A DNA stretch of 20,000 nucleotides from Psammoneis japonica (GCA_008632985.1 QPGO01000271.1:59924-79923), one strand, 5' to 3'. Numbered from the stretch's first letter, positions 1 through 20,000 are shown. Program-made: numbers and translations. The notes: generated by a model not told the origin, from the letters alone.

Positions 1-1050
1 GGACAAGCTGCGGCACCCAGTCAAAAAGGCAAAGGAGAGAAGCCTGGCAGGTCTGCTGGATGACTTGTCGCTGGCGATGGCAGCTGTGAAACAATCCTTG
101 CCACCAAGTGTTTCCTTGTGCTCCAGTTGGACGTGAAGCAGACGGCTGGGCTCCACTGCAGCTCCAGTGTTTCCCTCTTCTAACTGCACAAGAGCTGTTG
201 GATCTTTGTCATCTTTTACATCAACAAGAGACAGGAGATGCTGCCATGTCTTGCACACACGCAGATCTGGCACCACTTTTTTAATCCAAAACTCCAACGA
301 CAACGCACCAGAGTCTAAAGATTTGTGCTTGTCACAAGTTGAAGTCATGTGGTCCATTGCAGCAGCAACATTGAACCTGCTGAGCATGTTTTGAGCAAAA
401 TTCTTGCTGCACAAATGGAGCTCTCTTTTGGTCTGCTTCAGCACCTTTTTGTCTTCCCCTTCCCAACAAACTTGCACTGGTCCTTTGTCATGCATGTCAT
501 CAGGAAAAGACAACATGCTGAGATCAGTGTGTCATTCATGCCAAGTTGGGGCCAGATCTTTGCCATCTTTGCCACGCTTTTGTTGCGTGGGTGGATCCAA
601 AGCATCCGTGTCATTGAGAAATTGCACGATGCAAAACTTGAGGTGCAGCTCCAAATCATCTGAGCTGCAGCCTGCCAGTGCATGTGCGTGCATGTTTGAG
701 GCAGAATTTGGCATCTCAATGATGTCCAACACCTGCAATGTGGCAGATGGCAAAATGCCTGGAGGGTTGGTCACAGCCATGCAATCTGCAACACATTCAT
801 GCAGTTCTTTTGCATTGCCGTCCATTGGCAAGCCATGCATTTTTAGCCACACCTTTTTAAATGGTGCGGTCCAACTTGCTTGTTTGTCAACAGGCAGAAA
901 CACCACAGGTGGGCCACTGGGTGTTTCAAGCATCAAATTGGCAAAGAATTTGAACAAATGTGAAGATGAGGGAAAATGTGCAATGATGGGCCAAATGGCA
1001 GATTGAAGCAGACCAGATTTGCAAAGTGCAAGCCCTTTGGAAGGACAAGG
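1..1050 (-). pseudogene. Degraded C-terminal part of a DNA-transposase-like protein (CMC/Plavaka-like) with an embedded SAP-like motif
   Basis: ORF 532..1173(-) contains WTAPFKKVWLKMHGLPMDGNAKELHECVADCM, which fits the SAP-like pattern WLKxRGLxxxGxxxELxERV. Reading through the TGA at 532-534 gives PTWHE*HTDLSMLSFPDDMHDKGPVQVCWEGEDKKVLKQTKRELHLCSKNFAQNML, resembling the 'LxxPxxIxxxGPxxxxWEGxxE' C-terminal catalytic region of CMC/Plavaka-type transposases. The frame stays open to position 1. Family call is by recalled motif only. Confidence 0.55.
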
Positions 1051-1139
1051 CAAAACAGCATTTTGCGGAGGACTTGGCGGATGGTGCAGAAGATGCGGGC
1101 AACAAGTGCCCAATGTTCCATGCATGGTCAGTTGCAGGT

Positions 1140-1635
1140 GACAAGCAAAAGCATTGTTCTGGTTGGAGGGCAAAGTGCAACTTCAAACATCACCACCCAA
1201 GTGTGTGCAAGGACATGATGGGACTGAAACCAGGCAAGACTTGTGAAATGCCTCATGAACTGGTTTTGTCCAAGCCAAAGCACATGTCAATCCCAACTTG
1301 TGGTCCCAAGGTTTGCTTTTTACAAGGCAACAACGACACATGTGTTTTTTCTTTGTTGGCCAGTGCACTGCATTGCTCACAAGATGAGTGCGTGACACAT
1401 TGCATCGGTGGTCAAGTTGAGGCTTCTGCAACATCAGCAGCTGATGGTGACTGACGAATGTGATGATGGTCTGACAAAGTTCTGCAACACCATCAAGGTG
1501 GACTGTGCCAGAGATGGCAGCATCACAATGGAAGATTTGCTGTGCAAGAAGCTCACCTCATGTGGGTTGTCAAACAACTGCTGCGCGACTGTGTGCAATG
1601 GTTGGATTTTTGACTCCAGTCATTCACATGCCGCA
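1140..1635 (+). pseudogene. Degraded fragment with papain-like cysteine-peptidase-style motifs (repeat-associated hypothetical protein)
   Basis: FLQGNNDTCVFSLLASALH (1317-1373; Q-x5-C followed by a helix). After a frameshift comes SNNCCATVCNGWIFDS (~1569-1617). The expected catalytic His before 'xxTV' is not present, so the fold call is tentative. Confidence 0.3.
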
Positions 1636-2249
1636 TCAAAAAGGCAGGTCTGCACTGAAAAGGTCTGGAGACATGACAGAATCATCAGCTGCAAAAGTGG
1701 TGACATCATTGTCAGGGACAGCTGCAGAGTGAGAATCTGCATTGTTGGTCGGGGACAAAGGAGAGGGAGCAGTGTGTTTTGTGTGCTGGTGGATCAGTGT
1801 GTCGTGGTGGCTGGCTTCTGTGAAACTGAGAATGCGGTCTTTGCATTGAGGTCAATTTTTGCAAACAACCCAGCAGGCACTGCAGGGAGGGCACTGGAGG
1901 GTCACTGCTCATTTGTGCAGGCACTTGTCAAATGAGATGTGAAGAGCCATTTGGCAGCAGTGAGGGCATGTTCAAGCAAATTGGCTGGACAACTGCCACA
2001 CAAACCACAGGAGAGTGACACAGGTTCCACAGACTAGAATGACAAGTCTGACTGACAACAGCCAATGATGAGTGTGTTGACAAAAGGATGGAGGCAACTC
2101 AGGCCAACACATGAGCACAATGGAGATGATGTGAGAAGGACACGTCATTGGTGATGTGGACACCTGTGACAATGAGGTGACATCATGAGAAACTTGGGAC
2201 AAGAAGAACAATGATGATGGAACACTGCCGAGTGAAAAAATCATGCTGA

Positions 2250-2425
2250 CATGGTGGGAAAGGAGGTGTGGCTGTGGGGCGACATGTTGGGGGAGCAGAA
2301 GTTGAGCACACCCAACATGCAGCACCCCCCCCCAACATGCAGACACCCAGGATGATGCATCTTGGGGGAGAAAACCACTCCCCCATCATGCCAGAGCATT
2401 TCTGACTGATTGGTCCCCCAACATT
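2250..2425. repeat. Cluster of CCCCCAACATG-like motifs in both orientations, with a hairpin
   Basis: Forward copies near 2311, 2329, 2380 and 2415; reverse copies (CATGTTGGGGG-like) near 2250, 2283 and 2358. GCATCTTGGGGGAG (2357-2370) pairs 12/14 with CTCCCCCATCATGC (2378-2391) around a 7-nt loop. Confidence 0.7.
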
Positions 2426-2609
2426 TGGCAGGTTGGGTTGTTCTCTCATTTCCTGTGGAGTTGCGCAAGAAAGCACACATCACAGATGATGTTTTCTTTT
2501 GCATTGATGAAAATGTGCAGCTGAATGAAGCATGGGCTGGCCTTGTCTCCTTGCTGCTTGTGCATGCACTGATGCCAGGCAGCAATGAACACCATGCACC
2601 CTTTGGTTG

Positions 2610-2685
2610 AAAACCTGGAAATCCAGAAAAAAGGAAGCCAAGAAATCCGGAAATGCAGAAACCCAGAAATCCAGAAATGCAGAAG
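2610..2685. repeat. Short array of the (C)CGGAAA-type minisatellite
   Basis: aaacctggaaatccagaaaaaaggaagccaagaaatccggaaatgcagaaacccagaaatccagaaatgcagaa; same 8-bp subunit as 2979-3220. Confidence 0.8.
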
Positions 2686-2978
2686 ATGTGTTCCAGCCGT
2701 GTGTGAACCAAATTGTGCACAAAAACAACACATGCACAATTTTTGCATGGTCTCTGACTTGCGATCGATCTTTCTCCACCAAAAGCATGGACTCGTGCAA
2801 ATTTAAATGATTTGCAACACTGACAAGACTCATGTCAGCATTGCAATGTCATTGGTTTTGTGCAATCCATGTTTTTTGTTGCAACAAACAAGTGGTGACA
2901 CAATGGATGATTTTTGGCAAAATTGTTGCCATCATTTTGATGTGAACACAAACAACTTTTCTGCAATGATGTCTGGCA

Positions 2979-3220
2979 CCAGAAATCTGGAAAAAAGGAA
3001 ACCCAGAAGTCCAGAAAAAATGGAGCCCAGAAACCTGGACAGATGGAAAAACAGAAACCCGGAAATCTGGAAAAATGGAAACCCGGAAATCCAGAAAAAC
3101 AGAAACCCGGAAATCCGGAACCCGGAAATGTGGAAACCCGGAAACCCGGAAAAACAGAAACCCAGAAATCTGGAAACTCTGAAACCTGGAAATGTGGAAA
3201 CCCGAAAACCTGGAAAAACA
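2979..3220. repeat. Minisatellite with 8-bp subunit NNCGGAAA in a ~24-bp higher-order unit (CCCGGAAATCCGGAAAAACGGAAA)
   Basis: Consecutive units cccggaaatctggaaaaatggaaa / cccggaaatccagaaaaacagaaa / cccggaaacccggaaaaacagaaa. Variants are mostly CG->TG or CG->CA. Confidence 0.9.
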
Positions 3221-3229
3221 GCAAAGATT

Positions 3230-4237
3230 TTGGTTTCAGCTCAGACCCCACGGCATGTGCAGAACTTTCCAACAATTGCCGTGCATGTCTGCTTGGCAGT
3301 CCATCCCCTTGATCTTGATTCAAACAGAGGTGCAAAGACAAAACACCTCCCTTGGATGCAGATCGTGGCATGCTCAAATCTCAAATCATGCGCTGCCCTG
3401 AATTTGATCATGGGGTGCCCTCAATTGAGAGTGGGCACCCTCAATCAAGGGTGGGCACCCTCAGCCAAGGGTGAGTGCCACAAATTGATGGCAAAAATGT
3501 GAGGAAAACAGGAGCTGAAGCCGCTTTCTTGCAATGAGGTGAGCTTGTTTGGCATGAATGACAGCTGCAATGCTGCAAATTCATTGACAGAAACAGCACA
3601 CTCTTTGTCTCAGCTCAAACTCAACAGGTTGCACAGAACTTTCCAACAATTGCTGCACATGCCGGGTTGGCAGCCCCACCCCTTTTTCTTGATTCAAACA
3701 GATGCAAAGACAAAACACCTCCCTTGTGGACACAGATTTTGGCATGCTCAAATCTCAAATCAAACACTGCCCTCAATTTGATCATGGGGTGCCCTCAATG
3801 AAGGGTGGGCACCCTCAATCAAGGGTGAGTGCCCTCAACTGAGTGTGAACACCCCACATTGATGGCAAAAATGTGAGGAGAACAGGAAATGAAGCCACCT
3901 TCTTGTGACGAGGCAGGCTTGTTTGGCATGAATGACAGCTGCAATGCCGCGACGTCAATCACAAAAACCAACACACTCTGTGTTCAAGCACCTTGCTGTT
4001 GCCAACATTTTGTTGCAGCTCAGACCCCAGACTCCACGGGATGCACAGAAATTTCCAACAATTGCTGTGTGTGTCATGTTGGCAGCCCGTCACCTGAGTC
4101 TTGACTCAAACAGATGCAAAGACAAAACACCTCCCTCGGGTGCAGATCTTGGCACGCTCAAATCTCAAATCATGCATTGCCCTTAATTTGATCATGGCGT
4201 GCCCTCAATTGAGGGTGGGCACCCTCAATCAAGGGTG
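3230..4237. repeat. Diverged tandem repeat, ~2.5 copies of a ~375-410 bp unit
   Basis: Anchor TTCCAACAATTG at 3267, 3641 and 4053 (spacing 374 and 412). Blocks GCAAAGACAAAACACCTCCC and GCTCAAATCTCAAATCA are in all three copies. TTGATGGCAAAAATGTGAGGA and GCTTGTTTGGCATGAATGACAGCTGCAATGC are in copies 1 and 2. Copy 3 is truncated at the gag remnant. Confidence 0.95.
3412..3479. repeat. 20-bp period array of a 16-bp palindrome (ACCCTCAATTGAGGGT-like); repeated at 3786-3855 and 4196-4237
   Basis: ggggtgccctcaattgagagtgggcaccctcaatcaagggtgggcaccctcagccaagggtgagtgcc. A perfect 14-bp palindrome CCCTCAATTGAGGG lies at 4202-4215. Confidence 0.9.
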
Positions 4238-4826
4238 TTTGCTGAGCTCTTCTCATCCATTGGGATGGTTTGCCCATGCCCACAATGCATCTCTCCCATT
4301 TTTGGTGCTGTCATGTTGCTCAATCCAAGTCCACACTTCCGCATTGACCAAGTGTCCTTTTGACAAACGACAAACAGAATTGAAATGTGCGCTCTTCCAC
4401 ATCATCAACGAATGCAGCCGGGGCTGCCACTGGCCTTGCCACACATCAAAATGGTTTCTTCAGCACCCCAATCTTCTGTGACAAGAGATTCAAGAGTGCA
4501 TCTTCCATCACATCAAAATCTTCCAACTCAAACACTGGCAAAGAACTGACCATTGTGTCCAAGTCCACCATGTCTTTCTCAACGCACTTTCTCTGACAGG
4601 CTTCTTCCAACGCTGCTTGTGCACTGCGCCGACTGGCTCCACTTGCCATTCTTTCTGTGTCTGAGTTGCCTTCCACAACTGCAACATTCTTCAAAGTTTC
4701 AAACCCGTCAAAGTGTGCTGGACAATCTCTTGTGTTGACATTGGCAACGCCACATGTCTGCGGTGCATCATCAACATCCACTGCAAGCCCTGACACCGCC
4801 AAAGCTTGAGCTGGTGCTGCCACCAT
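4238..4826 (-). mobile_element. gag: Ty1/Copia (diatom CoDi-type) gag remnant, N-terminal part
   Basis: TCGVANVNTRD...FDGFETLKNVAVVEGNSDTERMA, then FELEDFDVMEDALLNLLSQKIGVLKKPF*CVARP, and after a frameshift NSVCRLSKGHLVNAEVWTWIEQHDSTKNGRDALWAWANHPNG*EELSKH. This matches the recalled diatom Copia gag pattern (EDAFLNLLAQ..GVLxEPLRYVVRP ... VYRKLKxxL...GWxWIE..D..xNGRxAxxAWxxHYNGxGELSKR). Contains stops, a frameshift and an internal deletion. Confidence 0.8.
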
Positions 4827-5091
4827 GCTTCTTGTGACACAAGGATGACAATGTTTTGTCCATCATGGATGAACAGAGTGACTGCAAGACTCACACAATG
4901 GGCACAGATGGGAGACTGAACGCTCCATGAGCGCCACGGCAACAGGTCCACATGGTCAACTGGTGAATGGGAGGCCACCCCATGCCATTTTGTCTGAATG
5001 AGCACACGCTCTGGGCTTGCCACCCACACTGCTCTGTCCAGCGCTCTATTCCCAGCAGTTGTCTCATCATGAGATCAGATTGATTGATCAC

Positions 5092-6166
5092 TGTTGCTTG
5101 TGTTTGCAGGCGCTGTCAGCACCCGACATCACTCAGGCCAATGGCGCAACTCTGGATGCAACAAAGGTGTCAGGGAATCCCTTGCTTTAGAGCAGCCAAA
5201 GAAAATTGACCAATGTCAAACAGCAGAAACCAGGAACAAGAGCTTGGTCCATGTGGAAGAAGCTGCGTGCCTCCCTCTGCCATCCAGCATTGCACACTTT
5301 GAAAGAACCTCTTGGCAACTGGTCAGTGCCACCATCCCAGATGCGCGTGCAGTCAACTGCTCATTTTTCTCCTTTGGAGGACTGTTTGCACGTGAAGTCT
5401 CCTTCAGGGTGCAAAGCATTCTAAGTCAATGGTGCCAGAACTCACTCCATTGCAGAGTTGGAAACAGCAACTGTCCCATCTGAAGAATCATTCCCAGTGG
5501 AGTCATCCATGACAGAAGACGGTGGATGGACACCAGACTTGCCACGCACTGCTTTGTCTGGCCCACCATCACCCGGCTTCCGGATTCATTCCAAGACATG
5601 CTGCAATCTCTGCCTCAATGGGGGGCAACGTTGTTTGAAGAACTTGATTTTTGCATGTCCCCAGACATGCTGATTTGCTGTTTCTCTTCCTCGACTTTGA
5701 CTGCAGGGAGCGATGGTTCAGTTGAAGTGGGTGCCACTGTTGGATGGACGACGGCTCTTGCAGGAACCCTGTCAGTTGATTGTGCAGGGCCAGTTTTTGG
5801 AAGGCACCCGTTGTCATGCCAAGCAGAAGCATGTGGGATTCTCTCCATCTTCTGATTCATTTGCCGATTTGTGGAATGCTGCAACAGCAAAGCTTTGGTG
5901 TCATGTTTGGAGCAGCTCACTTTCTCCCTTCCAGCTCCAACTCCTGAGGAACAGTCTGACAATGTCAGAGATTTTCATGCACGGCAAAATGGAGCCAACA
6001 CCCTTGCCTCTGACTGGGACATGCCAAGCAAGATGTTGCATTCCCGAATTGCCATGGAAGAATCCCACAAACCTCAGGACTCCCTCATCCTTTCTGCAAG
6101 TCAAATGGGTGAAAGGACACCAAGACAGACATGCCCCACTCCACACACTCCCACTCAACACAAGAG
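5092..6166 (+). mobile_element. Non-LTR retrotransposon (LINE) fragment: post-RT region plus RNase H domain
   Basis: Across frameshifts: CLCLQALSAPDITQANG; QQKPGTRAWSMWKKL...LKEPLGNW; FQDMLQSLPQWG; RNase H motifs GSDGSV..GATVGW, CAGPVFG..PLSCQAEACGILS (SYRAEAYG-like), CNSKALV, TLASDWD and WVKGHQD (6106-6126). Confidence 0.85.
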
Positions 6167-7140
6167 ATGTGACTTGCAATCTCATGGAGCTTTGGTCTGG
6201 GCAACAACTCAGTCAGCACATCTGCTGGATTCGTGCATCTGTCTTCCCAAGCAATGCACACAATTCCTGTGGTCTGCGCTTCATGGGTCTTGTGACACAC
6301 AATTGCACTGTGCTTCTTCTTCAATGCAGCCTCCAGTCTGGTTGAGTTCTTAAAGACAGCTTCATTGTCACAAAAGACATCAGTGGCCCCATCCATGGGG
6401 ACACCCAGCACACAAAGCTTGCAGTGCAAGGCTTCCATCTGCTCCATGGCAGTCTTCATTGCAACAAACTCTGACCCAAAAGCAGATGACTCAACAGTGT
6501 TCTGCCATTTAGAGTGGCACAAAATGGGTGCTTGCTGGATGAAAGTCAGGATCCCAGTGTGGGACCTGCGCGTCACACAACATCTGGCATGGTCAGCATC
6601 AACAAAGCAGACAGCAGCCGCTGCACTGTCCCCACGTGCTTCTGGCATGTTTGGCGGCAATGGTTCAGCCGTGCCAGGGCAATGTTCTTCCCAATCACAC
6701 TTGGTGAAATGGCTCTCATCAAATGCAGGCTCAGTGTTGTCAAACACAAGAGCAGACCTTGAAAGAGCCTTTGAGCAGGCAAAGATGTGAAGCACCTTGT
6801 CCAGGTGCACTGCTTGCAGTGCTGCAAGGTGGGAAGACATGAGTGAGAAGGCAACAAAAATGTCCACTCATCCCAGCTCAACTGCCCAACAGAGCACCCC
6901 AATGAGGCCTTGAAAGTGGTTTGCTGTTCTGGCGTTCAGCTCTGGCGAACCATCCAGCCCCAAGCTCAATGGTGTCAACACGTTTGTTGGAAGTCACCCA
7001 TCTGTTTTCTCAAGCACTCAGTTTCAACGTCAGCAAGGGCTCAGTGGCATGCAAGTCAGAGGACACAGTGGAGCTCCAGTGTGTCTTGCAGATTTCCTGC
7101 TCCACTTTTGCCTGCATTCTTTGAGGGGCCAACAGCTTTT
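6160..7140 (-). mobile_element. pol: Ty1/Copia pol remnant: reverse transcriptase C-terminus plus RNase H
   Basis: LPTNVLTPLS..LDGSPELN..ANHFQGLIGVLCWAVELG*VDI, HLDKVLHIFACSK, FVDADHA..VTRRSHTGIL, SKWQNTVESSAFGSEFVAMK, VFCDNEAV, LKKKHSAIVCH, TNPADVLT. These are canonical Copia RNase H motifs. A CGA->TGA stop lies at ~6868-6870 and there are upstream frameshifts. Confidence 0.95.
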
Positions 7141-8073
7141 TGCATTGGCTCTCCATGGCCAAGTTCACAACAAAGCTGATGCCAAAGATGGCAGCAACAC
7201 AACCAAAGAAATGAAAATGACAAGCATGGGACAACAGCCAATGGAGGACCCAAGCTTCCCATGTGCTCCAGCAGTGCCATTGTCAATGGCATTGCCAAAC
7301 TTCTTGCCGTGGTTCTTGCGGGAGCATGTCATGGCTGCAATCAGCTGAGCAAGCAAAATGCATCAAACATGAGGATTCAAGCAACAAAGGACGAGCTGCA
7401 AAACAAGGAAATGCAACATTGGCAGCAACACCAAAGTGAGCTCAGTTTGATTGTTGAGTTGTTCCAAACTGTTCCCATGACAACAAAAGTGAGATGAGCT
7501 TGAGTCTGAATGAGAGGCAACATGACAAGGCACCAACACACACAGGGCAAAGATTCCAGTTTCTGCACTTGCACAAGTCATTTCAGTCCTTGAAAGTCCA
7601 GCAGAAAGGCAGGCAATGAAAATGCAGAACTGTCAATGCTTCAACATCAAGGGAAATGTCCCGTCTGTGTCAGCATGATTGCACCAGGGTCACTTTCTAA
7701 AATGCATGGCACAAGCACTGTCAGAATCTCCCCACCACCAGCATCATTCTGAACAGGTGCTGAAGTTTGACCCAAACCATGTGCCACTTTGCTCTTTGCT
7801 TTGGCAACGAGTCCATCCAGTTGTCATGAAAAAAATGAATGGAGTGCATGGTGGCCATTGGCAGAAACAGAATTCCACAGGTTGACAAATCTCCTCGAGC
7901 CTTCATCACGTGCTGTTTGCACATCTGGTGGGGCAACAATCTGACATTGCACGCAAACTTGCATGTGACATTCTTGCCCGTCATGTCTGAATTTTTTGCA
8001 CGCCGTGTCAGAAATCTTGCTTGCGGTGCAATTTTTCTTGTCATGTGTTGCAAGAAAATTTGAGTGCAACATC

Positions 8074-8250
8074 CATGCGGACAACGTTGCCAACATTTTC
8101 AAGTGCAACACTTGACCACTTTTCACTGTGCAACAATTTACCTTTGAACTGGTCCCTGACTCACATTGCTTTCAAACCGTTCTTTAAATCCAACAAGCAC
8201 ACGGACAACATTCCTGACATTTTGCAGTGCAACACTTGGGTGCTTTTCAC
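8074..8250. repeat. Two diverged ~53-bp direct repeats, 124 bp apart
   Basis: catgcggacaacgttgccaacattttcaagtgcaacacttgaccacttttcac (8074-8126) versus cacacggacaacattcctgacattttgcagtgcaacacttgggtgcttttcac (8198-8250). Confidence 0.8.
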
Positions 8251-8349
8251 CATGTGAAATGTTTCTTTCCGGTCAATGGCCCGACTCACATTCCATGATG
8301 TTGCAGCTGCCCCAACTGAGTTGATTTCATGGTCAATGCCTTTGCTGTC

Positions 8350-9400
8350 ATTGTTTTCTGCTGCGTGCTGGTGAATGTTGCTGCCATGCCACCCGAGTGC
8401 TCGTTGCGTCCTTGCTTGCTTCTGTGGGTTGTTGTTCGCTCTGCCTCCTCAAGAACCCATTTGTGTTAAAAGCACTGTTGTTGGTTGCTGCTGCTTCTGG
8501 AGTCTCTTCCTCTTTGCTCCCCTGTTCATCATTCCTTCCTGTGGCCTCCTCCTTGCTGTCACTCCAATCTGTTTTCAGAGCTGCCCATCCCCTCATGCTG
8601 CCCTTCTTTTTCTTCTTTCTTTTCTTGCTGTGTTCGCTCTCTGATTTTTTTGTCTGCAGGCACCATGCATTGACTCTGCTGCAATCCGTTCTCTCCTTTG
8701 CCACCACATCGTAGAGTTTGTTGTGCTTGTTGATCCCATCCTGGTTCCATCCTTGATTTTTGCTTTGCGCCTTTCCCCATGAAAGTGCACTTTTGGACCA
8801 TTGGCCATGTCGGTTGTTGTGCCCCTCTGTTTTGTTTGAATTGCTCTTCGATCTCTGCCACTGATGTGGCCGCATTGCAGCAGCTCTCATGCATCAGCCT
8901 GGCAAAAGCTTCCGCACTTGTTGCCAGCCAATTGCTGACACCTTGGCTGGCCACTGTTTTAAAGTGTTCCATTCATGCTGCCAGGGAGCAGCAATTTTCC
9001 AAGAACCAGAAGTGCGTTTTTGAGACGATGCCCTGCCCTTTTCAATGTCTTCAACACTTGGCATTCCATTGCATCTGGCCATCTCTGAGCAAGAGTCAAT
9101 GGATGAGAACACTGCTCCATGTCATCCAACCACAGCCCAAACAGCAACCATCTTCTTTCTAAAAACCTCCTGCCTGTTGTTTCTTCTCCTGTTTGGTCTT
9201 TTCCTCACCTTCTCCTTGTTCTCTTCCCACCAAACTGCACAGTCACTTGCATCCACGTTGAGGTGCTTGCAAACCTTTTTCTGCATTTTGCTCCCAAAAG
9301 CCAACTCGACCTTGTTGTGCATCACGAACTTTGTCTTGGGGGGGCACACAGCAGCCGCAATGCAGTCGGCCATCTGGCCATCCACAAACTTTCTCCTTGC
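8350..9400 (-). pseudogene. Degraded repeat-associated hypothetical protein ('S[D/A]EAF...KYT...GWxxxGIxxxNxL' type), probably a DNA-transposon accessory ORF
   Basis: Colinear pieces in three frames: TKFVMHNKVELAFGSKMQKKVCKHLNV...WWEENKEKVRKRPNRRRNN; VSNWLATSAEAFARLMHESCC; QKCTFMGKGAKQK; QGWNQDGINKHNKLYDVVAKER; then a basic KKRKKKKK stretch and acidic tail. The motif set is recalled from multicopy diatom hypothetical proteins; function unknown. Confidence 0.5.
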
Positions 9401-10999
9401 TGCCTCCAAGCTGATGACCAACCGCAAGCTCCACATTGTGCAATCCTGTCTCTGCCGTGTCATGGGTGCTGACTGCAACAAAGGACACAAGATTGGCACA
9501 AGCTGGCCACCCTGTTTGTGCAATGTCACTGCAGCGCACATGCCTGGTGAATCATTTTGCACCAACATGTTTGCTCATCCACTCCAGTGTGTCTTGTGTC
9601 AACAAAATTCCTCCCTCAGACCAAACCCAGTCCTGGAGTGCGTGCCTGCCAGCTGCCAGCATGCCTGTTTGTCATTCCCAAAAATGCTCCCTCTCTTTGA
9701 ATGCCAAATTTTTCAAATCGCTCATTGTTGAATGTCAGCTGATGAGTTTTACATTCCTTTTGAATGGCAGGTGTTGTTTGCATCCTCACATTGTCCGTTC
9801 ACTGTGTTTTGCATGATCTGCGCAAAGAACAATGGCACTCCCAACTGTTGTTTGCCAGAATTTTCAAATCACCACCCAATTTTATTTTTTGGGCACAATT
9901 TTCACAGATGAAAGGGCTGCAGTCCGAACACTTCTTTTTGCATTTTTGGCTTGCCTGTGGCATCTTGCTTTGCCATCTGGGTCCCCGCACTCTTGGCCAT
10001 CCCCTGTTCATCACCCGCGACAAACAGAGCATCTTTTCGCACAGTTTGCAACTGGCCAGCGCGTTTAAAATTTTCATGTTTTGGTCATCCAGTTCCAGCT
10101 AAAACTTTCCAGGAAACCAGGTTCATCTCTTTGCCCTCAGATGAGTTCCAGGTCCAGGTGGGACCTCACACTGCTGAGCTGTGACATCGACAGATTTTTG
10201 AATCACGTCGCATGTCGCGCACGTGGATTTCTGCGTGATTTTTTTGACATTTTGTGTCATTTTACGGTGCACTTGTTGAGCGATCCGTCCAACAACTTTT
10301 GACATTTTTTGTTACAGCGCGATTCTACAATGTCTTAAGAATCACATGGGGCAGGCGCATTTGCAAAAACATTGAGTGGCAAGAGGCACATTTGCACCAC
10401 AAACTTGGCCGTTTATTTGATGTTGAAGATGAACATGTCCATTGATTGAATTCTTGCACTGCGGAGCTCGCACACAGAATTCTGCGGGCCCAATGTCACA
10501 CGGAGTCCCACCCAGGGCTGGAACGCGTCCTCACTCATCATCCAGTCTTGCTCTCACCCTTCTGTCTTCCTCAATCACACCCGATTCTTCTCTCGCGGTT
10601 TTGCAAGATTCGTGCAGGTGCTCCGTGGTGCAATCCACTGATGTGACCCTCTCTGGATGTGCGCACTCCTGCACAGAATGCCCTCATTCCCAACAGCGCT
10701 TTCCGGCACAATGCAAAGTCTCCGCTCACTGGAGGTGGGCAACGTCCCTCTGCGAAAGGCCAGGGGATGTCTGCGCCGGCATCATGTTTGTCAAGATGAG
10801 CCACGTCCATCACGTTGTCTTCTCTCACAGTCACTGCATCCTCTCTGACAGGCAGCAGAGCACACATGATTTTTGGGAGCCGGCATTCCATGTCTTGTTT
10901 TTTGGCAAGCCACCATGATCACACAAGGATTTTGCATCAAAAGGTCAACTGGCGTCTCCAGTTCAAAGTCCACCAAATCTAGCGTCAAAGTCATCTGAC

Positions 11000-12140
11000 T
11001 TGTTCACACAGCCGCCACCTGTCAAATGGGTGAAGGGCCATCAAGATCGGCGCGCTCCAATGCATGCCCCACCCCTCAACGCCAGAGTCAATGTCCAAGC
11101 GGATCAATTGGCAGGGGCATGCCAAGGACAGCACCCTTGGGACACCACAATGGTGCTGCCCTTTCCGAATTGTCACTCACATTTGAGTCTCCCAGATGGC
11201 ACGTTGACCGCAGGCCACAAACGTCATGTCAGATGCACGGCCACCACCCCACAATTGCTGCAATGCATCATTGAATGCAGCCAGTGGAGTCCAGAGGTGA
11301 CAGAGCTGATTGATTGGGATGCTCATGCCATCCTCATAAAACGTCATTCCAAACAACACGTCGGAACAGTCAATCAAGCCAGCTCACAATCTTCTCCCCA
11401 CCAATGAGATCGTCCGCCGATGCAACTCAGTGAGACCTCACCAGTGTCTTCATTGTGAGCATCCCATGGAAGACAGGGACCACATGCTCTGCTGTCCACA
11501 TGATGAACCATGGCAAAGAAAGTTTCCACAAGGTTTGAGGAGGTGTTGTGACCGAATCGACACCATGCCAACCCTTCGGGACTTCTCATTGCAGTCCATT
11601 GAAGCATGGTTTCACAGTGAGATGGTTTGTCTTAAAGATGTTGATTGCAGATGCAGAGTTCTGTGGCAGGCTCAATCCGATGTGGGGTGGTGGCAAGTGT
11701 TCAGTGGAGGGCATTCCCTTCTGTGGAGTGTCATTCAATCTGGACATCCAAGAGATTCTGGGATCCTTCATCAGCACCAGGAGGAGAACAAACAACCACC
11801 AACCTGGACAGTGCAGACAGGAACGTTTGTCTGGTGGCAATGGCGGGAATTGTGGGAAGAGCACAACAAACACTTCCATGGCCATGATGCAGAAACTGGA
11901 CAATCTTTGCAGAGATGCAAAGTGGAGGCTGAGCTGACAGCTGTGTGCAACAAACATCAGGAACACTTGGCAAAAGACCAAGGAGTTCTGCTTGATTCTG
12001 TGGCAGAACACAAGACCTTTGCTGCTGCATGCATGCAAAATTGGATTTCTGTGGTTGAGCCCAGATTTGAGGAAAGCCTCAAGGAAGCCAAGAGGCTGGC
12101 AACACGCAGCACATGCACCATTGCCAGTCATTTCCGTCGG
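11000..12140 (+). mobile_element. Second LINE fragment: end of RNase H, zinc knuckle and C-terminus
   Basis: VKWVKGHQD...LNARVNVQADQLA; QWSPEVTELIDWDAH; HNLLPT; CLHCEHPMEDRDHMLCC (CX2C...EX3HX3C knuckle, ~11445-11495); QSDVGWWQVFSGG.S..W; WRELWEEHNKHFHG (WxxRNxxxHG-like); ends TIASHFR. Confidence 0.85.
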
Positions 12141-12199
12141 GCGTCTCCTCTGGGAGACGCCGCTTCAGGCTGGTTGCGCACACTTCTGCCACACCTCCA

Positions 12200-12960
12200 A
12201 GTGGAGTTTGCTGGAAGTGTGGGTTGGCCGGTGCCGGTGTTGCTGGGCAAAGGTGCAACAGCACTTAAAACAATTGATTTGGTTTTTTTAGCGTCAAAGT
12301 CACTTTGTCTGTGCATGTGTTGCAACTGATTCTGGTGTTTTGCACCCACCCCTTCAAAAATGGTTGCAAGCTGCACCTGCACAACCTGTTGCTGCCCACA
12401 CATCCCACTGCAACACAACAATTGAATGCCCAAGAGTCAACGCATGTTGTCCAGTTTTTCATGCAAATTGAACATCTGGAATTCTTCCTCAATGTGGTCT
12501 CTTTGCAAATGACACAACAGCCTTGCAATCCAGCATCACCTCATCACAGTGCATCTGGGATTGCCCAAGTTGCATCTCCACATTTCCAACACATTGTCTT
12601 GCTCCACCATTTCTCACAAAACATTGAGCATGTGTGGCCTCAACAGCTTGTTGACAAAATCCATTTTCAATGTCATTCTCCAGCTGAGGTGGGAAAACAC
12701 GCATTCCAGGACTCCCTTTGTCAATGCAACGCATCCAAGGCCACCCAGCGTGTCGCACTTCTTGCAATTTGAACACAACATGTTTGATGTCAGCCCCAAG
12801 CATTTGTTGATGTTGTTTGCTGCTGCAAAGATCGTGGATTGTGATGGGTTTGGCTGCTGTGTGAGCAGTTCTCTGCACAGTCACCAAATCTTGAAATTTC
12901 ACAAGTGGGGCAACAGGCTGTGCATTCTCTCTCTTGGAAATTTTTGGCATCCTCAAATGA
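12200..12960 (-). pseudogene. Possible degraded coding fragment with a Cys-rich, zinc-finger-like segment
   Basis: Protein-like frame in 12489..13076(-), followed in another frame by CVICKETTLRKNSRCSIC...CVAVGC..RLCRC...CNTC. Weak, because Cys is inflated by the mutation bias. Confidence 0.2.
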
Positions 12961-13058
12961 AATGATTGAAGATTGTGTTTTTCAAATGTCTCATGTCGCT
13001 GAAAGAGAACACAAAATTTTGGTGTTCTTTGTAAATGCTGTGGCATGGATTTCCCATG

Positions 13059-13177
13059 TTTGTGACACAACTCCAAACACTGTCACCAAAATGGGTTTCA
13101 CATCTTGCACAATTGCACAGATTTGTGATGCAATTTTTCACACTGCCACCAAAACAGGCAAGACATTTTGCACAATT
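13059..13177. repeat. Two-copy tandem repeat, 63-bp period
   Basis: tttgtgacacaa...acactgtcaccaaaatgggtttcacatcttgcacaatt versus tttgtgatgcaa...acactgccaccaaaacaggcaagacattttgcacaatt. Confidence 0.8.
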
Positions 13178-14199
13178 CAATTTTCATTCCTGCGACAATT
13201 GCAGTGACTTGACATGCAGCCCCATGTGATCCTCCTCACACCAAAGCGCCGTGGTCACAATGCAACACAGAAACTTCACAATTGTGTCATTGTGTGGTGT
13301 TGCCAGGTTGCACCGTCAGCTTGCCGCAACACCCACAATTGCTTTCCATGTCGTTGTTGTGCTCCACCTTCCATGTTGCATCTCGTCTCCCTCCCCAATT
13401 CCAACAGGACTTGATCACAAAAACAACAAAATCTCTGGCAACATGTGCATTTCCAACCCAGCCAGCATGTGAGCAAGAGGACTTTGACATGCAAGAAGGT
13501 CTCTTCTGTTGGATTGTCTCCCACACACATCAACCATTCATTCAGCACTCTCAACATGGATGGATTTCTCAACGCACTTCCTGCTGGCCAAGCTTTGGCA
13601 ATCTGGGCAAGAGCACTTTGTGGCTGTTCAATGGTTTGCAATGACAAACATCTGTCCTCCGCGTTGAGGGAGGTGGCAGTGGAATTGTCAGCACAGAAAG
13701 CCAGATGAAGAGATGCTGATGCCAGGAGAAAATCTTTTGCCCAGAAAAGAAAGCGCCAACACAACACCAGTGTCCGGGAAAATGGTGCATCCACTGATGG
13801 GATTGGCTGTGCTTCTGTTGGTTCCCATGTGGAGGGACTTTTGATTGAATCACAGAAGGAAATTTCAGCAGAGTTTTGCTTGCACTCAAACAGATTTGGA
13901 CAGTCAAAGTCAATCAATTTGTCATTGTTTGGCACTTCAGCCACCAAAGACCTGCAACTGTCCGAGGAAAGAAACATTGCCACTTCCGTTAAAAAAAAAA
14001 AACAGACAACACAAGTGATTGTGAAGCACCTGTTTCCGGTGCCGTCAATGCCATCCAACAATTGCCAGAAGGAGCAGGTGCAGATGACTGTTGCAATGAG
14101 CCACTCTTCACTGACCAAGCAGAGTTGGACCACCACAGTTTTGGATCATGCAATGACTTGACAAAACCAGCCAAAATCCCCAATGCCAAGAACGTTGCT

Positions 14200-14560
14200 G
14201 TTGACAACAACATGTTGGCAGTTGGCATTGTTTTTGGTGATGAGACCGCCGATGTCTCCACCCAGGAATGCAGAGACACAGCACGTTGTCAGGCACTGGT
14301 CAGATCTGGCTTCAATGTCCACACTGTGGACTGCCATGAGACAAACACCCCACATCCAAATCACATGAACGCCGGTGTGCATGTGCACTTGGTCAATCCA
14401 AGAACTGGGCTGCCAAGGAATGCATCTGCAACTCTGTGTCATTGGATGTTGCATCTGTGACAAAATGGCATTTCAACAACAGGGTCTTGTTGGACTCTTT
14501 TTTCAGTCAATCGTTGGCTCGACTCCATCAAAAGCTGTTGCATCAGAGTGCACGATGTTG
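14200..14560 (+). pseudogene. Degraded Rossmann/SAM-methyltransferase-like domain, paralogous to 19300-19800
   Basis: MLAVGI...QECRDTARCQAL..GFNVHTVD...HMNAGV, then after a frameshift CNSVSLDV...KWHFNNR....FFSQSLARL. The motif order is the same as in the 19.3-19.8 kb domain. Confidence 0.45.
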
Positions 14561-14799
14561 CAACATCTGCGCGCATGATAAAAACACATTGCCACATTAT
14601 AAAATTTACTTGTCTGCACACAACGGTTTTTGTCATTCAGGCAATTGTTAATTTCCTGCTGTTCTTCATGTTTGAACACAGATTTTTTTTAATTTTTGTG
14701 CTCTGCCTTTTTCACAACAACTGACGATCTTTAACGACAAGCCAAACATTGCAATTGCATGCAATGAAATTTTCATCATGTGAAGTGTGCACCAATCAT

Positions 14800-15610
14800 T
14801 TAATCAACAACTGTGCTCCAATTTGCCAAGTCGTCTGCATCGTCCTCTTCATTCCACATGTCTTGTCCGCTCTCTTGCAAGAATTTCAAATGTGCCGCTG
14901 CCGTGTTGGATGTTTCCTCGTCACCGTTCCAAAAAAGCCACACTGCATTTCTCTTGCATTTGGGTGAACATCATCAAGAGGAAGAGGTCCCTTGAAATGC
15001 AGAATCGCACCACTGCTCCCCTCTTGACGTTGTGTTGTCGGCTTCTTTTTCTCTTTCTTCATTTTGCCCGTCCTGTTTTTCTCTTCCTTCTTCATCTTGG
15101 CACCGCCTGTTTTCACTGTCACCGGCGTCTTTCCATCCGAATCCTTCTTTTTCATTGATCCCGTTGCTGTCGCCTTCATTGTCTCTTGTTGTTGTTGTTG
15201 TTTTTTTTCTGTTGTGTGTCACTTTGTTTTGGATCCATGATTCTGACTTCTCTCTGTGCTGTCTCCATTTCTGAGTGTTTCTTTGTGATTGTTCGCATGC
15301 ATCACTTGAAGGCACCCACGTGTTCTTCACGCACCTTAACGCGTGTGCAGAAATCCATGTTGTTTTCCAGTGCATGCACCCTTTCTCCTGATGCTGTCAC
15401 TCACAACATTTTCTTCCATCAATTCTGCACTCCGCGCTGCCCTTTCCCGGTGCAATCTCATGTGGGATTTCCCTGGGAGAAGTCACATGCGCACGTCTGG
15501 CAGGTTTTTGTGTTCACAACTCCAAATCCTGCCAGGCACGTGTGTGACTTCTCCCATGCACCACTCTGGTGCATTTCTGCAGAAACCAGATTTTTTGGTG
15601 TTGGAACAGC
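14800..15610 (-). pseudogene. Possible degraded coding fragment with Lys/Glu-rich low-complexity region
   Basis: Protein-like segments in shifting frames: VHALENNMDFCTRVKVREEHVGAFK, MKKKDSDGKTPVTVKTGGAKMKKEEK..., HLKFLQESGQDMWNEEDDADDLANWS. No family recognised. Confidence 0.3.
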
Positions 15611-16698
15611 AACCATGGCGCCACGCAACCTGTCGGTCGCCTCTCTGTCGCAAGACAACAATGGTTCCTGCCTCAAGGAGGCCGCATTTGAATCTCTCTT
15701 TGCCAACAGTTTTGGAGTGATCGATGGCAACAAGTGGAGCCGTGTCAAAGCGATGATCAAGACGTTGAAATCCAAGGTTCAGCTCCACTGCGACTCCACT
15801 TCTGATCCCTCTTCGAATTGGATCATGCTTGCCCATGTGTGGCAAAAGTCAAAGGGCAGACCTCATTTTTTGTGGAGCTGATGGCTGTGAACTGCATTGT
15901 TGCAAAGGAGCTTGGGTGCAAGAGCTTGCTGCACTTTCTTTCCACAAAAAGATCAAGGCACCAAACATCCTCATGCATTGGAGCATCGCCATGCTCCCAA
16001 AGCAGCGGACATGAAAGTTGTCGGCGACAAGGCAAAATCAACAGACATTGCAACCAACATGATGGCAAAGATTTCCATGTTGCACAAGCTTCTCCATGAT
16101 CCCGGGTTGTGCGACCCAAAGGGAGAGCCACTTGTTGAGCACATTGAGCTGAGAAGTTTTGAAGGGAAGGTTTTGCGTTACGCGCAACACCTTCACATTG
16201 GTTTTTTGATTCTTCATGACAAGATTCTGCCGCACGCACCTGAAAGGAATGGTGATTGTGATCATTGGCTTTGCTCCCTGTTCGGCGAATGTGACGAGAC
16301 ATCAACTTGCATCAACTTTTTGGAGAATTTTCTGGCTCTTGGTCACTGTGATGAGATGACCAAAGACGAATGCCCTGTGTCCTTCCCTGAATTCGTAAAG
16401 TCGTTGTTCCGCCAACACAAAAATTCTTGGGAAAAGCCCATGCAACTGGCGATGCTCGATGTCGAGCGAGAACAAATGTGTGCAACACATGTCAATGAGA
16501 CTCTTTTAAGATGTGTGAAAATTGATCGTGTGGTTTCTGCCGCTGACAATTCCGGCAAAAGCAAGGCTGCAAGGGATTGTTTTGAGGCCATGTGGAAAGC
16601 CAGGCTTCGTGACTTTGCCACTCAGTGCAAGAAGAAAGAATTCGGCAATGCAATTCCATCCGTTACGAAAAATGCTTGGAAACAAAAAAATCCAAATG

Positions 16699-16783
16699 GT
16701 GTGAATCCATCACATTGTTTGAATGATTGTTTGTGCTCCTCTTCTTGTCTCCAATTCTTCTGTTCTTCTTGCAACCTCTTTAG
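16699..16783 (+). other. Spliceosomal intron (85 nt, GT...TAG)
   Basis: G|GTGTGA donor, pyrimidine-rich body, CTCTTTAG| acceptor. Removal joins ORF 15897 (phase 1, G) to CC at 16784-16785 (GCC) and continues in the frame of ORF 16723. Confidence 0.8.
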
Positions 16784-18985
16784 CCGCCTCCCTTTGCTCC
16801 TCAAGCCCCAGTCTCAAAAACCCCAAAGATGGCAAACCTTCTGATGTTTCTCAGAACGAATTGCTGATTCTCCAAGATGTGCCCACTCTCAAGGAACAAT
16901 TTGAACATTCCCAAACAAAGTGGTTGACCCTCGGCACAACTTGTCAGTCACCTCCTCCTCTGCCAGACAATTTCACAAAAGAAGAGCTTGTGAAAGTGTT
17001 TCCTGAACCATCTCCATTTGCGATTCCGGGTGAGGTGAAGTCACAACATTCTCACCTTGTCGTCTTTGAGGAAACCCCCATTTCCAGTTCCTTTGAGGGG
17101 AACTGTGTCAAGCACCAGTCACTCCACAGCATCTCCAATTTCTGCTTGGTGAATCACCTCCGCAAGTTCATGCATGGATTTGAAAACGGCGCAGCTCCCA
17201 ACAATCTGATGCAAGAATTGATGGTTGCGATTGCTTGCCCGACCCAGTCAACCTCTCATTTTTCCGACGTGGTCACTCATTTGTGACACACGGACAAGAT
17301 GCATCAGAAATGCTTTTTTGGATTGCGAGTCAGTGTGTCGTTGACACTCCGTGCAGTGTTGGAACATGGCGAGCCGAACAAAAAAGGGATGGACCAGAAT
17401 GCAAGTTGCGCTGTCGGATCTGTTTTGGTTGTTGTGGCCAGAATTACGAAGTCGCAGACGGTGAGTTAGCTGAAGTGGGACCTGCTCACAAGCCTGGTGC
17501 TGTCTTTGGCAGGGACAAGTGGGAGAAGCTTCCAAAGGATGTGCAGGCATGACAGCCTCAATCTTGGACGCCGCGCAACTCTGCGAGGACGAAATTAATC
17601 TTGTTGCTTTGAAAGAAATGCGTTCCTTCCATGACCCGCACCGTGACAGTCTTTTCGCGGCTGAGCTCCGCAAGATGGTTGGAGCCAAGCATGTTAGAAG
17701 GGAAGGCGTGGAAATTCAAGTGAAGTGCATCTCGTCGTCCGGCAAAAAATCCGTCAATTCGAAACCGAGCTGCACATTGACAAAGAGGATTGTGACATGG
17801 ATGGGTGCACCAAGACTGGTGCTCTTTGCTCGTCACTGCGAGACGCTGTTGGTCGCTCTTGGTCGTTGAAGGTTGTCACTGCATCCAAAGGCAATGCTGG
17901 AAACTGTGTCAGTTCGGCACATGGGCATGCCGAGTTCCGATCGCGTGTGCATGGTCATTTCGCAAAACTTGATCTGTCACATGCTGCAGAAATGATGAGA
18001 CCCGTGGCCCTTCGTTCTCTGTCAGGCAAGCCCCACAGAAACATCAAAGATTTTTTCCTTGACCCTCACTCTGTGTGAGTGGAAGATGAAATTAGCAAGC
18101 CAAATCTTCCGTCCGACACAGTTGAGTGTCCCGTCATTGTCATGCCGAGGAAACGTCTTCCGTTTGCCATCGTGGAGGACTTTAATTTCTCACAACCTCG
18201 ATGAGGCTGGTGCACACGATTGCTTTTGTTGCACCATTGTGGCTGGGTGTCAAACCAGATTCTCCCGTTTTTGCCACTTGTTGTGCAACACAGATGCTGT
18301 GAAGCGTCCTTTCGTGGCTGGCGATTGTGTCCTTCATTGCTTCAGAGAAGCCACAAGGCCACTCGGCAGCATTGCAGGGGATCGCAACAACCGATGCATG
18401 CAGAGCCCGGGACTCGATTTCAAGGAGGTTCATGTGGCAGAGTGCTGGACGAAACTCAATGGTTTGATGGACTTGCTTGTTGGCGGACTGGTTGTTGTCA
18501 TGGACTGGATCAATGACAATGTTGGCAAGCCAACGTTTGGCCACAAGGCAATCGAGGACATGTTTAAAACCGTGGTCCAAACATGGGATCATGCAGGTGC
18601 TGATTGTGGAGAGTTCAGATGCATGAACTCTGTGCAGACATTGATGCTGTGTGGCACAGGGATCCATCCTCACCCCGGTGGCCAAGTTGGGAGCGGCAAA
18701 GCAAATGGAAGAAATGAAGGTCCCAGTGGAGGAGCGCGATTTACTCTTGGAACGGACAGAGGGTGATTTTGATTTGGAAGACTGTGGAAAGAATGGCCCA
18801 GAGTCTTTGCTGTATGACCTGAGTGCAGCTCGTGAAAAGATGGGAATCTGCGATGTCTTTTGTTGCGGACAGCATCTGTTGCTCTTGTTCTCTGATGGGC
18901 AATCAATGATCAAGCGGTTTGGAAGGTGTGAATGGGAGCCAGTCCCATTCGTGTCGATTGATGAAGTTCGAGCCGAACTGGAACG

Positions 18986-19070
18986 GCAAAGAGAGGTCTT
19001 TTTCATGGCAATCACATTTGTTTTTTGTCTGATTGTGCTGACATTGTCACATTGATTCTCGTTCTAACAG
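18986..19070 (+). other. Probable spliceosomal intron (85 nt) with donor GCAAAG (likely mutated from GTAAAG)
   Basis: T-rich body, GCTGAC branch-like motif, TTCTAACAG| acceptor at 19070. A donor at 18986 leaves CG + G = CGG and joins ...EVRAELE-R-KKAAGDLLSFAMNK in the frame of ORF 19090. The other candidate donors (18996, 19008) give an immediate stop. Confidence 0.6.
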
Positions 19071-20000
19071 GAAGAAGGCCGCCGGTGATTTGTTGTCATT
19101 CGCAATGAACAAAAGTGACGATTGCGAGGAGGAGTCAATTGACGAGAAAACAAGCAAACTTCCAACTGCTTGCATGGGTGAAGAGGACAAAAGCGAAGAG
19201 CCTGTTGACGATGAGCACAACCAAGTTGCACATTGCTCTGAGGGTGAAGAGGACCACAGCGACTTGGGAGATTGTTTCGCAAGTGACGAAACTGACGGGG
19301 AAACACACAATGTGCTGTGGTTGGGGATGACCCGTCCGCTCAATGCAAGGCAACTGTCTTCTCAAGAATTGTGCTCTGAGAAGGGGGTGGCCTTAGTGTC
19401 GTCCGACCAACACAGGCGAGACGAGGCCGCGCAATGGCATTTGAGGAAACTAACAAAACAATCACAAACGTCGTTCCAACAGTTTCTCTCCAAGATGGCC
19501 ATCCTGATCTGCACTTAAATTGCAATGTGAAAGCAAGAGATTTCGTCAAGAGAGTCAAGCAGCAGTTTGAGAAACTTGTTGATTTCGACAATCATGGGTT
19601 CGACCAAATCATGTTGGACTGCTGCTGGATGCCAGATGGAGAGTGGCGCGATTCTCGTTTTGGGACGACTCAATTTTTCCAGAATCTAATTGATCTTCGG
19701 GCCTTGCTCTCCAAAAACGAAGAAGGGGGGGACACAGTGATTCCCTTTGCTCTTGCAACCTTCTTCCAGGTTGTCAAACAATGGAAGAAATTGTCGGCTG
19801 TGTTCGACATGTGCACAATGGACAATGATGCTGCAAAGAGCCATGCGAGCACATTCTTTGCAAGTGACCTTACAACCCAAGAACAACAAGAACAGTGGTT
19901 GAGAAAGCCTTCTTGCAAGAAAGAGTTGGGAAATCACTGTGAGTGAATGATGGATTGATGCGCGCACCCCATTTTAGAAAACAAAATCTGACCAGCACTT

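Follow-up and report, generated by a model that had tools for sequence, protein, structure and literature searches.

What can remove nearly every TpA step from 20 kilobases of a genome, and why do the few that escape sit between so restricted a set of neighbours? The question is raised by a 20,000-nucleotide stretch of Psammoneis japonica DNA (GCA_008632985.1 QPGO01000271.1:59924-79923), referred to here as the window, in which base composition predicts 1,336 TpA steps and only 68 are found, an observed-to-expected ratio (o/e) of 0.05. Ninety-five percent of the TA steps have thus been lost from a 20-kb block of repeats, and almost every TAA or TAG stop and Tyr codon has gone as a result. CA and TG stand at 1.71 and 1.73 and CG at 0.40; the two products are equally common in both orientations (2,180 CA, 2,109 TG), and the summed deficits of TA (1,268) and CG (697) over the window are roughly equal to the combined excess of CA and TG (1,794). 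The loss spares no part of the window: TA o/e is at most 0.128 in all 20 one-kilobase bins, while CA+TG o/e is 1.56-1.96 in 16 of them (all of 1-16000) and 1.48-1.51 in the bins of 16001-20000. Overall, we believe, with a probability of roughly 65%, that dead repeats have here undergone a mutation of TpA to TpG or CpA that has run almost to saturation, one whose rate at each adenine depends on the flanking bases.

The loss ran in one direction, from TA to CA or TG, and it took place in DNA, after the repeats had been duplicated. In a pseudogene that can be aligned with an intact relative, the protein P0005 (Table 1), the 18 positions at which P0005 has Tyr now read His (CAY, where Y is C or T) six times, Cys (TGY) five times, Phe three times, Tyr once and another residue three times. 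Among three tandem copies of a non-coding repeat, an exchange between CA and TG is the commonest adjacent double difference, with 15 cases against 3 for the AC/GT control, and eight alignment columns are discordant between CA and TG. Contigs of paralogous copies, drawn from one public sequencing run that contains 55% of the window's words, differ from the window mainly by transitions (A>G 462, G>A 467, C>T 502, T>C 503), with 58-100 of each transversion type; among 40 listed of the 2,577 differences, adjacent TG-to-CA pairs stand at 2514/5, 2522/3 and 11835/6, and no difference lies at a surviving TA. A preliminary description of this DNA, made from its sequence, had dismissed codon selection and drift of base composition as causes, and rightly so: the depletion extends to non-coding tandem repeats and to a pseudogene that carries two TGA stops in frame (15879 and 15888) and whose conserved Tyr codons now read His or Cys.

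Survival, in turn, depends strongly on the flanks. The surviving tetramers are TTAA (23), TTAC (12), TTAG (10), CTAA (9), TTAT and ATAA (3 each), GTAA and CTAG (2 each) and single cases of CTAT, GTAG, CTAC and GTAT, with no ATAC or ATAG; 23 of the 68 sites are therefore TTAA, 39 have one protective flank (a 5' T or a 3' A) and six have no such flank. The preliminary description had come within one site of this, counting about 61 of about 67 survivors with a protective flank where the exact figure is 62 of 68, placing the six exceptions correctly (2035, 5047, 8712, 10326, 10980 and 18813) and noting the absence of GTAC and ATAT. Its proposed comparison of tetramer counts with expectation, made here within the window, puts the bias well beyond chance, whether the three classes are predicted from first-order flank frequencies (7.2, 29.8 and 31.0 expected, p 3e-13), from regeneration of TA by transitions in the present CA and TG (4.8, 27.3 and 35.9, p 3e-22) or from all single-base precursors (4.4, 27.2 and 36.4, p 1e-24). 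When the two strands are symmetrised, the base 5' of TA is T in 85 of 136 half-sites, C in 26, G in 17 and A in 8; the last three differ among themselves (p 0.012), and since A is the rarest 5' flank, the bias is not simple AT-richness.

The effect also reaches beyond the immediate neighbour. The fraction TA/(TA+CA+TG) rises from 0.008 without a preceding T to 0.022, 0.053, 0.099 and 0.079 after one, two, three and four (trend z 11.9; z 5.7 for runs of at least one), and so the dependence on flanks persists when the length of T/A runs is taken into account, the outcome that would have spoken against it being that such normalisation abolished it. The share of T before TA is 0.62 at position -1, 0.54 at -2 and 0.43 at -3, and returns to its background of about 0.26 at -4; the preference is thus not confined to a tetranucleotide, as had been supposed, T being enriched up to three bases out. 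The CpG step, which is likewise depleted and gives the same CA and TG products, provides an internal control, and here CG/(CG+CA+TG) is flat over the 5' flanks (0.084-0.107).

Sites known to have been lost tell the same story from the other side. Nineteen ancestral TAs are confirmed as mutated, 11 of them at Tyr codons and 8 in the discordant columns of the tandem repeat, and 12 of the 19 are without a protective flank, against 6 of the 68 survivors (Fisher p 3e-6); within xTAY, a 5' T precedes 15 of 18 survivors and 4 of 11 mutated sites (p 0.017). The counts are well described by a multiplicative half-site survival model, in which the two adenines of a TA escape independently, each weighted by its neighbouring base pair. 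With three parameters this model reaches a log-likelihood (LL) of -140.7, compared with -171.5 for the Markov expectation and -186.2 for context-free regeneration from CA and TG, and the 16 tetramer counts are all fitted (G 15.7 with about 12 degrees of freedom). Relative to a 5' T, the fitted survival weights are 0.44 for C (0.29-0.67), 0.29 for G (0.17-0.44) and 0.13 for A (0.05-0.23), and the corresponding rates per adenine, relative to TAA, are 2.0 for TAG (1.4-2.7), 2.5 for TAC (1.9-3.4) and 3.4 for TAT (2.6-4.9), ratios that are approximate in that they assume 1,336 ancestral TAs (1,000-2,000 were tried). This order of survival, T > C > G > A, agrees with a preferred target of VTAB (V being any base but T, B any base but A) that is strongest at RTAY (R being A or G), as the preliminary description had it. 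To call TTA and TAA refractory, on the other hand, is an overstatement: rate differences of 2- to 3.4-fold suffice near saturation, and protected contexts have mutated as well, for one paralogous copy of the surviving TTAA at 4184 reads TCAA, and 4 of 5 T-flanked Tyr codons have been lost.

These observations can be drawn together in a simple kinetic model. The window would consist of dead repeats, most of them high-copy, within a eukaryotic genome. A process at the level of DNA would have acted on them at the A of 5'-TA-3' in either strand, changing A:T to G:C and yielding TpG or CpA, and a TA would survive only where both of its adenines escape. The rate would be set by the neighbouring base pair on the target strand, in the order TAA < TAG < TAC < TAT, and would be lower still within A-runs, which are T-runs on the opposite strand, as far as three bases away; a ratio of about 1 : 2 : 2.5 : 3.4, together with protection by A-runs, is the quantitative prediction that follows. 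Consider, for example, a TTAA, for which the modelled survival is about 19%. With some 95% of all sites gone, a mild kinetic preference of this kind is magnified into a survivor set dominated by TTAA and by TAs lying between a T-run and an A-run, and we would add as a general caution that at saturation a mild kinetic bias resembles an absolute rule.

What agent might be responsible? To our knowledge, the ADAT2/ADAT3 and TadA type is the only class of enzyme that deaminates adenine in polynucleotides and has been shown to act on DNA, and in tRNA the natural target of ADAT, A34, comes directly after the invariant U33, an order that would suit a requirement for T-A. An adenine deaminase acting on DNA, as proposed for the alga Bigelowiella natans discussed below, is our preferred candidate, and the flank effect would then probably be the enzyme's own recognition. 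We further infer that the base that matters is the 3' neighbour of the target A and not the base two positions 5' of it, although the survivor counts equate the two, which are the same base pair. On the 3'-neighbour assignment TTAB should go mainly to TTGB, and this is the direction observed (1,101 TTGB against 621 TCAB, with TG/CA rising along T-runs from 0.86 to 1.39, 1.9 and 2.2). We have set this asymmetry aside as a proof of the assignment, since TT is commoner than TC in the background and the asymmetry is not decisive.

Several points weigh against flank-dependent deamination as we have framed it, beyond the approximate nature of the fitted ratios. The flank analysis covers one 20-kb window, in which surviving TAs per kilobase are over-dispersed (p 0.02), so that the sites fall short of full independence. 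Confirmed-mutated sites are few (19); the Tyr sites among them can carry only C or T on the 3' side, and two of the discordant columns, 259 and 343, have ambiguous flanks. Of the four survivors in the pseudogene, a single one can be proved ancestral, two are compatible with such an origin and one points neither way. The product asymmetry is confounded by the excess of TT over TC, and a residual asymmetry is left under every assignment tried. A regeneration model with a single parameter reaches LL -148.0, far better than the context-free version and moderately worse than survival. In addition, amphioxus BjADAT2, which edits DNA, is described as preferring GAA for A and TCG for C (PMC10354150); the former differs from the T-A requirement here, and the latter is not mirrored in the window, where CpG has been lost with no bias toward TCG. 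The mismatch lowers the likeness to BjADAT2 itself and does not exclude a different ADAT2-like enzyme.

The regeneration model belongs to an explanation that we consider unlikely, though it deserves a careful hearing, namely that the TAs seen today are mostly newcomers, recreated next to T or A by changes such as TCA to TTA, TGA to TAA or, through slippage, TTTCA to TTTTA. C-to-T change in a TpC context and polymerase slippage that extends T/A runs are part of general mutation biology, and regeneration by these routes predicts both the 5' T and 3' A flanks and their dependence on run length; nor is the direction of change polarised by the three readings TTAA, TCAA and TGAA at 4184, and the survivor at 16664 (GTT|ACG) could equally be a change of GTC to GTT. 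Nonetheless, regeneration is about 10 Akaike information criterion units worse than survival and misjudges particular contexts (TTAT, 3 against 9.0 expected; ATAA, 3 against 7.6; GTAA, 2 against 7.2). It would need about a quarter of TTTCA at three-T runs (15 of 58) to have been converted, against 0.8% without a preceding T, in a window where TC shows no overall depletion (o/e 1.03), and it does not account for the six TAs without any T/A flank. The Tyr codon at 16179, shared with P0005, is ancestral, and the alignment makes its TA demonstrably a survivor rather than a regenerated site. Finally, bins that have kept more CpG have also kept more TA (Spearman +0.58, p 0.007, for 1-kb bins; +0.84, p 0.002, for 2-kb bins), and TA retention drops as the CA+TG excess grows; TA is thus commonest where CpG has decayed least, the opposite of accumulation with age, and the pattern fits survivors in less decayed DNA. 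We regard with similar scepticism the proposal that the influence of context runs by way of DNA structure, chromatin or repair rather than base recognition by the mutator, for instance because A-tracts might limit access or base flipping, or because hypoxanthine or I:T might be repaired better beside A:T pairs. The growth of the effect with T/A-run length up to three bases is what a property of A-tracts would be expected to produce. At the same time, the immediate flank already separates C, G and A, and a 5' A protects least although it too makes an A:T pair, which is hard to square with a simple effect of A:T content or melting; CpG, moreover, has decayed in the same DNA with no flank bias. 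The earlier attribution of the bias to an enzyme footprint therefore stands as regards the strong dependence of survival on flanks and goes too far as regards its cause, recognition by an enzyme being here not separable from context-dependent repair or DNA structure.

Two further alternatives are much less probable. A-to-I editing of an ADAR-like kind, in which double-stranded retroelement RNA is altered and reverse transcription fixes the change, seems to us very improbable: ADARs prefer a 3' G, unlike the fitted 3' order T > C > G > A, and they act on RNA, and so on the transcribed strand, whereas CA and TG are equally frequent in the window and its non-coding tandem copies, duplicated as DNA, diverged into CA and TG afterwards. 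In its favour, parts of the window resemble retroelements, and ADAR hyper-editing is likewise an A-to-G change with a preference for U (or T) 5' of the edited A (bioRxiv 10.64898/2026.01.13.699255, main text); the same preprint, however, places de novo events of TpA mutation in single-copy integrated DNA. The least probable account of all, to the point of being negligible, is that no context-specific process exists, the survivors either mirroring ancestral TA contexts rich in TTAA or being kept by selection. Formally, the counts of TCAA plus TTGA and of the single-flank products are large enough to hold all the lost TAs. The ancestral TAs that can be identified, however, are mostly VTAB (the 12 of 19 noted above, with GTAC, GTAT and ATAT among those in the tandem repeat), the contexts xCAy plus xTGy are nearly uniform, and the region is dead, with stops in frame and Tyr replaced at conserved positions.

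The closest parallel to saturated, flank-dependent TpA mutation is found in B. natans. Mettrop et al. (bioRxiv 10.64898/2026.01.13.699255) describe, in the main text of their preprint, mutation-accumulation lines in which two viral inserts carried 231 changes, 230 of them A to G or T to C; the GC-biased changes all fell on TpA and gave TpG or CpA, events were still arising de novo in a subset of lines, and an ADAT2-like candidate, Bn78255, was named. The same text describes 124 TpA-depleted clusters enriched in CpA and TpG, with reverse transcriptase and zinc-finger domains enriched among the depleted coding sequences, and defines a cluster as 3 or more consecutive 1-kb windows in which Rho(TpA) does not exceed 0.43, Rho(CpA+TpG) being 1.52 or higher. 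By these cut-offs, both of which are passed in 16 of its 20 bins, our window would be classed as such a cluster, and the change is also alike, A:T to G:C at TpA in both orientations, as seen in the replacement of Tyr by His and Cys, the CA/TG discordance and the transitions. There is a difference of degree: the active regions in B. natans retain TpA at 3.3% and 9.2% of dinucleotides, against 0.34% in the window. The targets described there are foreign or mobile sequences; those here are high-copy repeats, whose likeness to retroelements comes from a motif and a lead from the ESM Atlas. The words flank, context, trinucleotide, tetranucleotide and neighbo(u)r do not occur in the main text of the preprint, whose Fig. 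2B motif or Table S2 could hold such information, and no further report of repeats mutated from TpA to CpA/TpG came up in a search of the literature. As far as we have seen, then, the block is a new instance of a known TpA hypermutation, saturated and rich in transposons, and its flank footprint is apparently not in print.

Other mutators of repeats and foreign DNA resemble the process in outline. Repeat-induced point mutation (RIP) of ascomycete fungi also wrecks repeats by dinucleotide-specific transitions on both strands and is likewise revealed by aligning copies, a parallel also drawn for B. natans (bioRxiv 10.64898/2026.01.13.699255, main text). RIP runs in the opposite direction, however, from CpA/TpG into TpA, where the window has TA at 0.05 of expectation and CA and TG in excess, and it rests on deamination or methylation of C, whereas the present process needs A to G. 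APOBEC3, with which the B. natans system has been compared as well in that preprint's main text, is similar as a host deaminase that inactivates foreign DNA at a short, flank-defined target that can be read from survivor and product contexts; it differs in converting C to U, giving G to A and C to T, where the window has A to G and T to C. In this context, the flank footprint is the cheapest discriminator between candidate enzymes for TpA hypermutation, and the order found argues both against an ADAR-like 3' G and against GAA, the preference of the single DNA-editing ADAT2 for which a context has been determined. With the DNA coming from a protist other than B. natans, one might go further and see in TpA-directed A-to-G mutagenesis a widespread eukaryotic defence against repeats, the mirror image of RIP, and in the footprint 5'-T-A-[T>C>G>A], damped by A-runs, the mark of DNA adenine deaminases of a new class, distinct from ADAR and from the known ADAT2 activities. 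We put this forward tentatively, as a possibility that is more doubtful than it is likely; if true, such a system can reach saturation on transposons and not only on viral inserts. A deaminase gene of the HxE-PCxxC type was not found in the window itself by a Pfam scan of its 86 frames.

Table 1. Features of the window, with positions counted from its first base.
Feature	Position	Strand	Basis or remark
Decayed-repeat block with near-saturated TpA loss on both strands	1..20000		Dinucleotide counts
Arrays of an 8-bp unit, GAAACCCG / GAAATCCA, with a 24-bp super-unit; TA-free	2611-3216	A-rich on +	Repeat scan
Three tandem copies, about 374-410 bp, 78-84% alike; hold the surviving TTAA at 4184	3216..4260	+	Self-comparison
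Second remnant with VKWVKGHQD	5701..6342	+	72% alike over 67 nt to 11021-11087
Cluster of 7 surviving TA	10066..10414		Site list
Very high-copy short core	10459..10529		Depth 110,345 in bin 10006-10672; contig loose ends 10397-10529
Two overlapping frames (10919-11404, 11340-12326) resembling the tail of a non-long-terminal-repeat (non-LTR) retroelement	10919..12326	+	VKWVKGHQD, then Cys/His finger
Cluster of 8 surviving TA, each with a T and/or A flank	14579..14801		Site list
High-copy repeat, running to the window end and containing the pseudogene	14675..20000		Summed contig depth 3,714-15,784, against about 34 for single-copy
Pseudogene of a helical protein family	15615..16688	+	Aligned from Met1 of intact relative P0005
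Surviving Tyr codon TAC, context TTAC	16179..16181	+	Tyr shared with P0005

A consequence of such decay is that open reading frames lose their meaning as a guide to genes. The + strand has 50 TAA and TAG taken together but 450 TGA, the - strand 61 but 474, and 63 stop-to-stop frames of at least 120 amino acids (aa) occur in the 20 kb, in all six frames; with TAA and TAG nearly gone, the length of a frame is therefore no evidence of a gene in such DNA. The loss of TA steps, stops and Tyr codons also explains why domain searches fail on it: Pfam assigned no family at E <=0.01 to any of 86 stop-to-stop frames of at least 100 aa, and on 16 selected frames at E up to 10 it returned only four sub-threshold rows at the level of chance, while a scan of the window against Rfam gave no match. 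CpG has followed its own course, with an o/e of 0.32 over 1-15000 (0.17-0.71 in single bins) and 0.65 in the high-copy 15001-20000. Because the loss of CpG is free of flank bias and uneven between the left 15 kb and the right 5 kb, it suggests that decay of methylated CpG has acted on this silenced DNA too, separately from the TpA loss.

The pseudogene shares 55% identity with P0005 by BLASTP, with 193 of 357 aligned codons identical. A homology search with P0004 gave one match among candidates of near length, P0005, and none among 19 shorter candidates, and no homologue of P0003 was found among 881 candidates. An exhaustive search of 1.84 billion representatives found 14 relatives of the pseudogene protein (P0005-P0018), of which only P0005 is close; Pfam on these 14 gave two unrelated rows and no family. 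Neither P0004 nor P0005 has relatives in viral contigs, nor P0005 in contigs of prokaryote genomes. The predicted structure of P0005 is mostly helical (mean pLDDT 67.9), with no match at E <=0.001 in PDB or BFVD and no chain at Z >=5 among 48,161. An assignment to DUF2828 (ESM Atlas 0.88, 138 shared features) lay below the tool's own reliability marks and was dropped.

The order of the lost Tyr codons in this pseudogene deserves separate mention. The six that became His (15834-16263) all precede the five that became Cys (16272-16626), an arrangement in at most two runs that has a probability of 0.004, and the bins of 16251-16750 are rich in TG (34 CA, 60 TG). Such an order may point to events coordinated by strand across a few hundred bases. 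Over the whole window, strand coordination was looked for and rejected: runs of CA and TG give z 0.3, and their heterogeneity (chi2/df, chi-square per degree of freedom, of 1.4-1.55) is below that of all five control pairs.

The survivors, too, show minor irregularities besides the two clusters in Table 1. TTAC occurs 12 times and its reverse complement GTAA twice, an imbalance (binomial p 0.013) that may be chance among several comparisons, and TTAG/CTAA (10/9) and TTAT/ATAA (3/3) are balanced. The TAs at 10980 and 12289 both precede TAGCGTCAAA, and may be homologous positions of related elements and so non-independent survivors.

The motif VKWVKGHQD and the Cys/His finger we take to be features of non-LTR retroelements, and Tyr is absent from the two overlapping frames that contain them. 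In the ESM Atlas the retroelement-like frame scores 0.96 to unnamed eukaryotic clusters, the few labelled members of which are diatoms, and 0.88 to zf-RVT; both are leads only. Among the sequencing contigs, 8,610 pieces align at 80% or more, and the single-copy pieces, at a depth of about 34, show no differences. No RNA sequencing run containing the window was listed, and a degenerate 23-mer taken from the high-copy core, scanned against metagenomes, gave one chance match, with normal TpA (o/e 0.71). The core itself, with its thousands of copies, may be a SINE-like (short interspersed element) insert.

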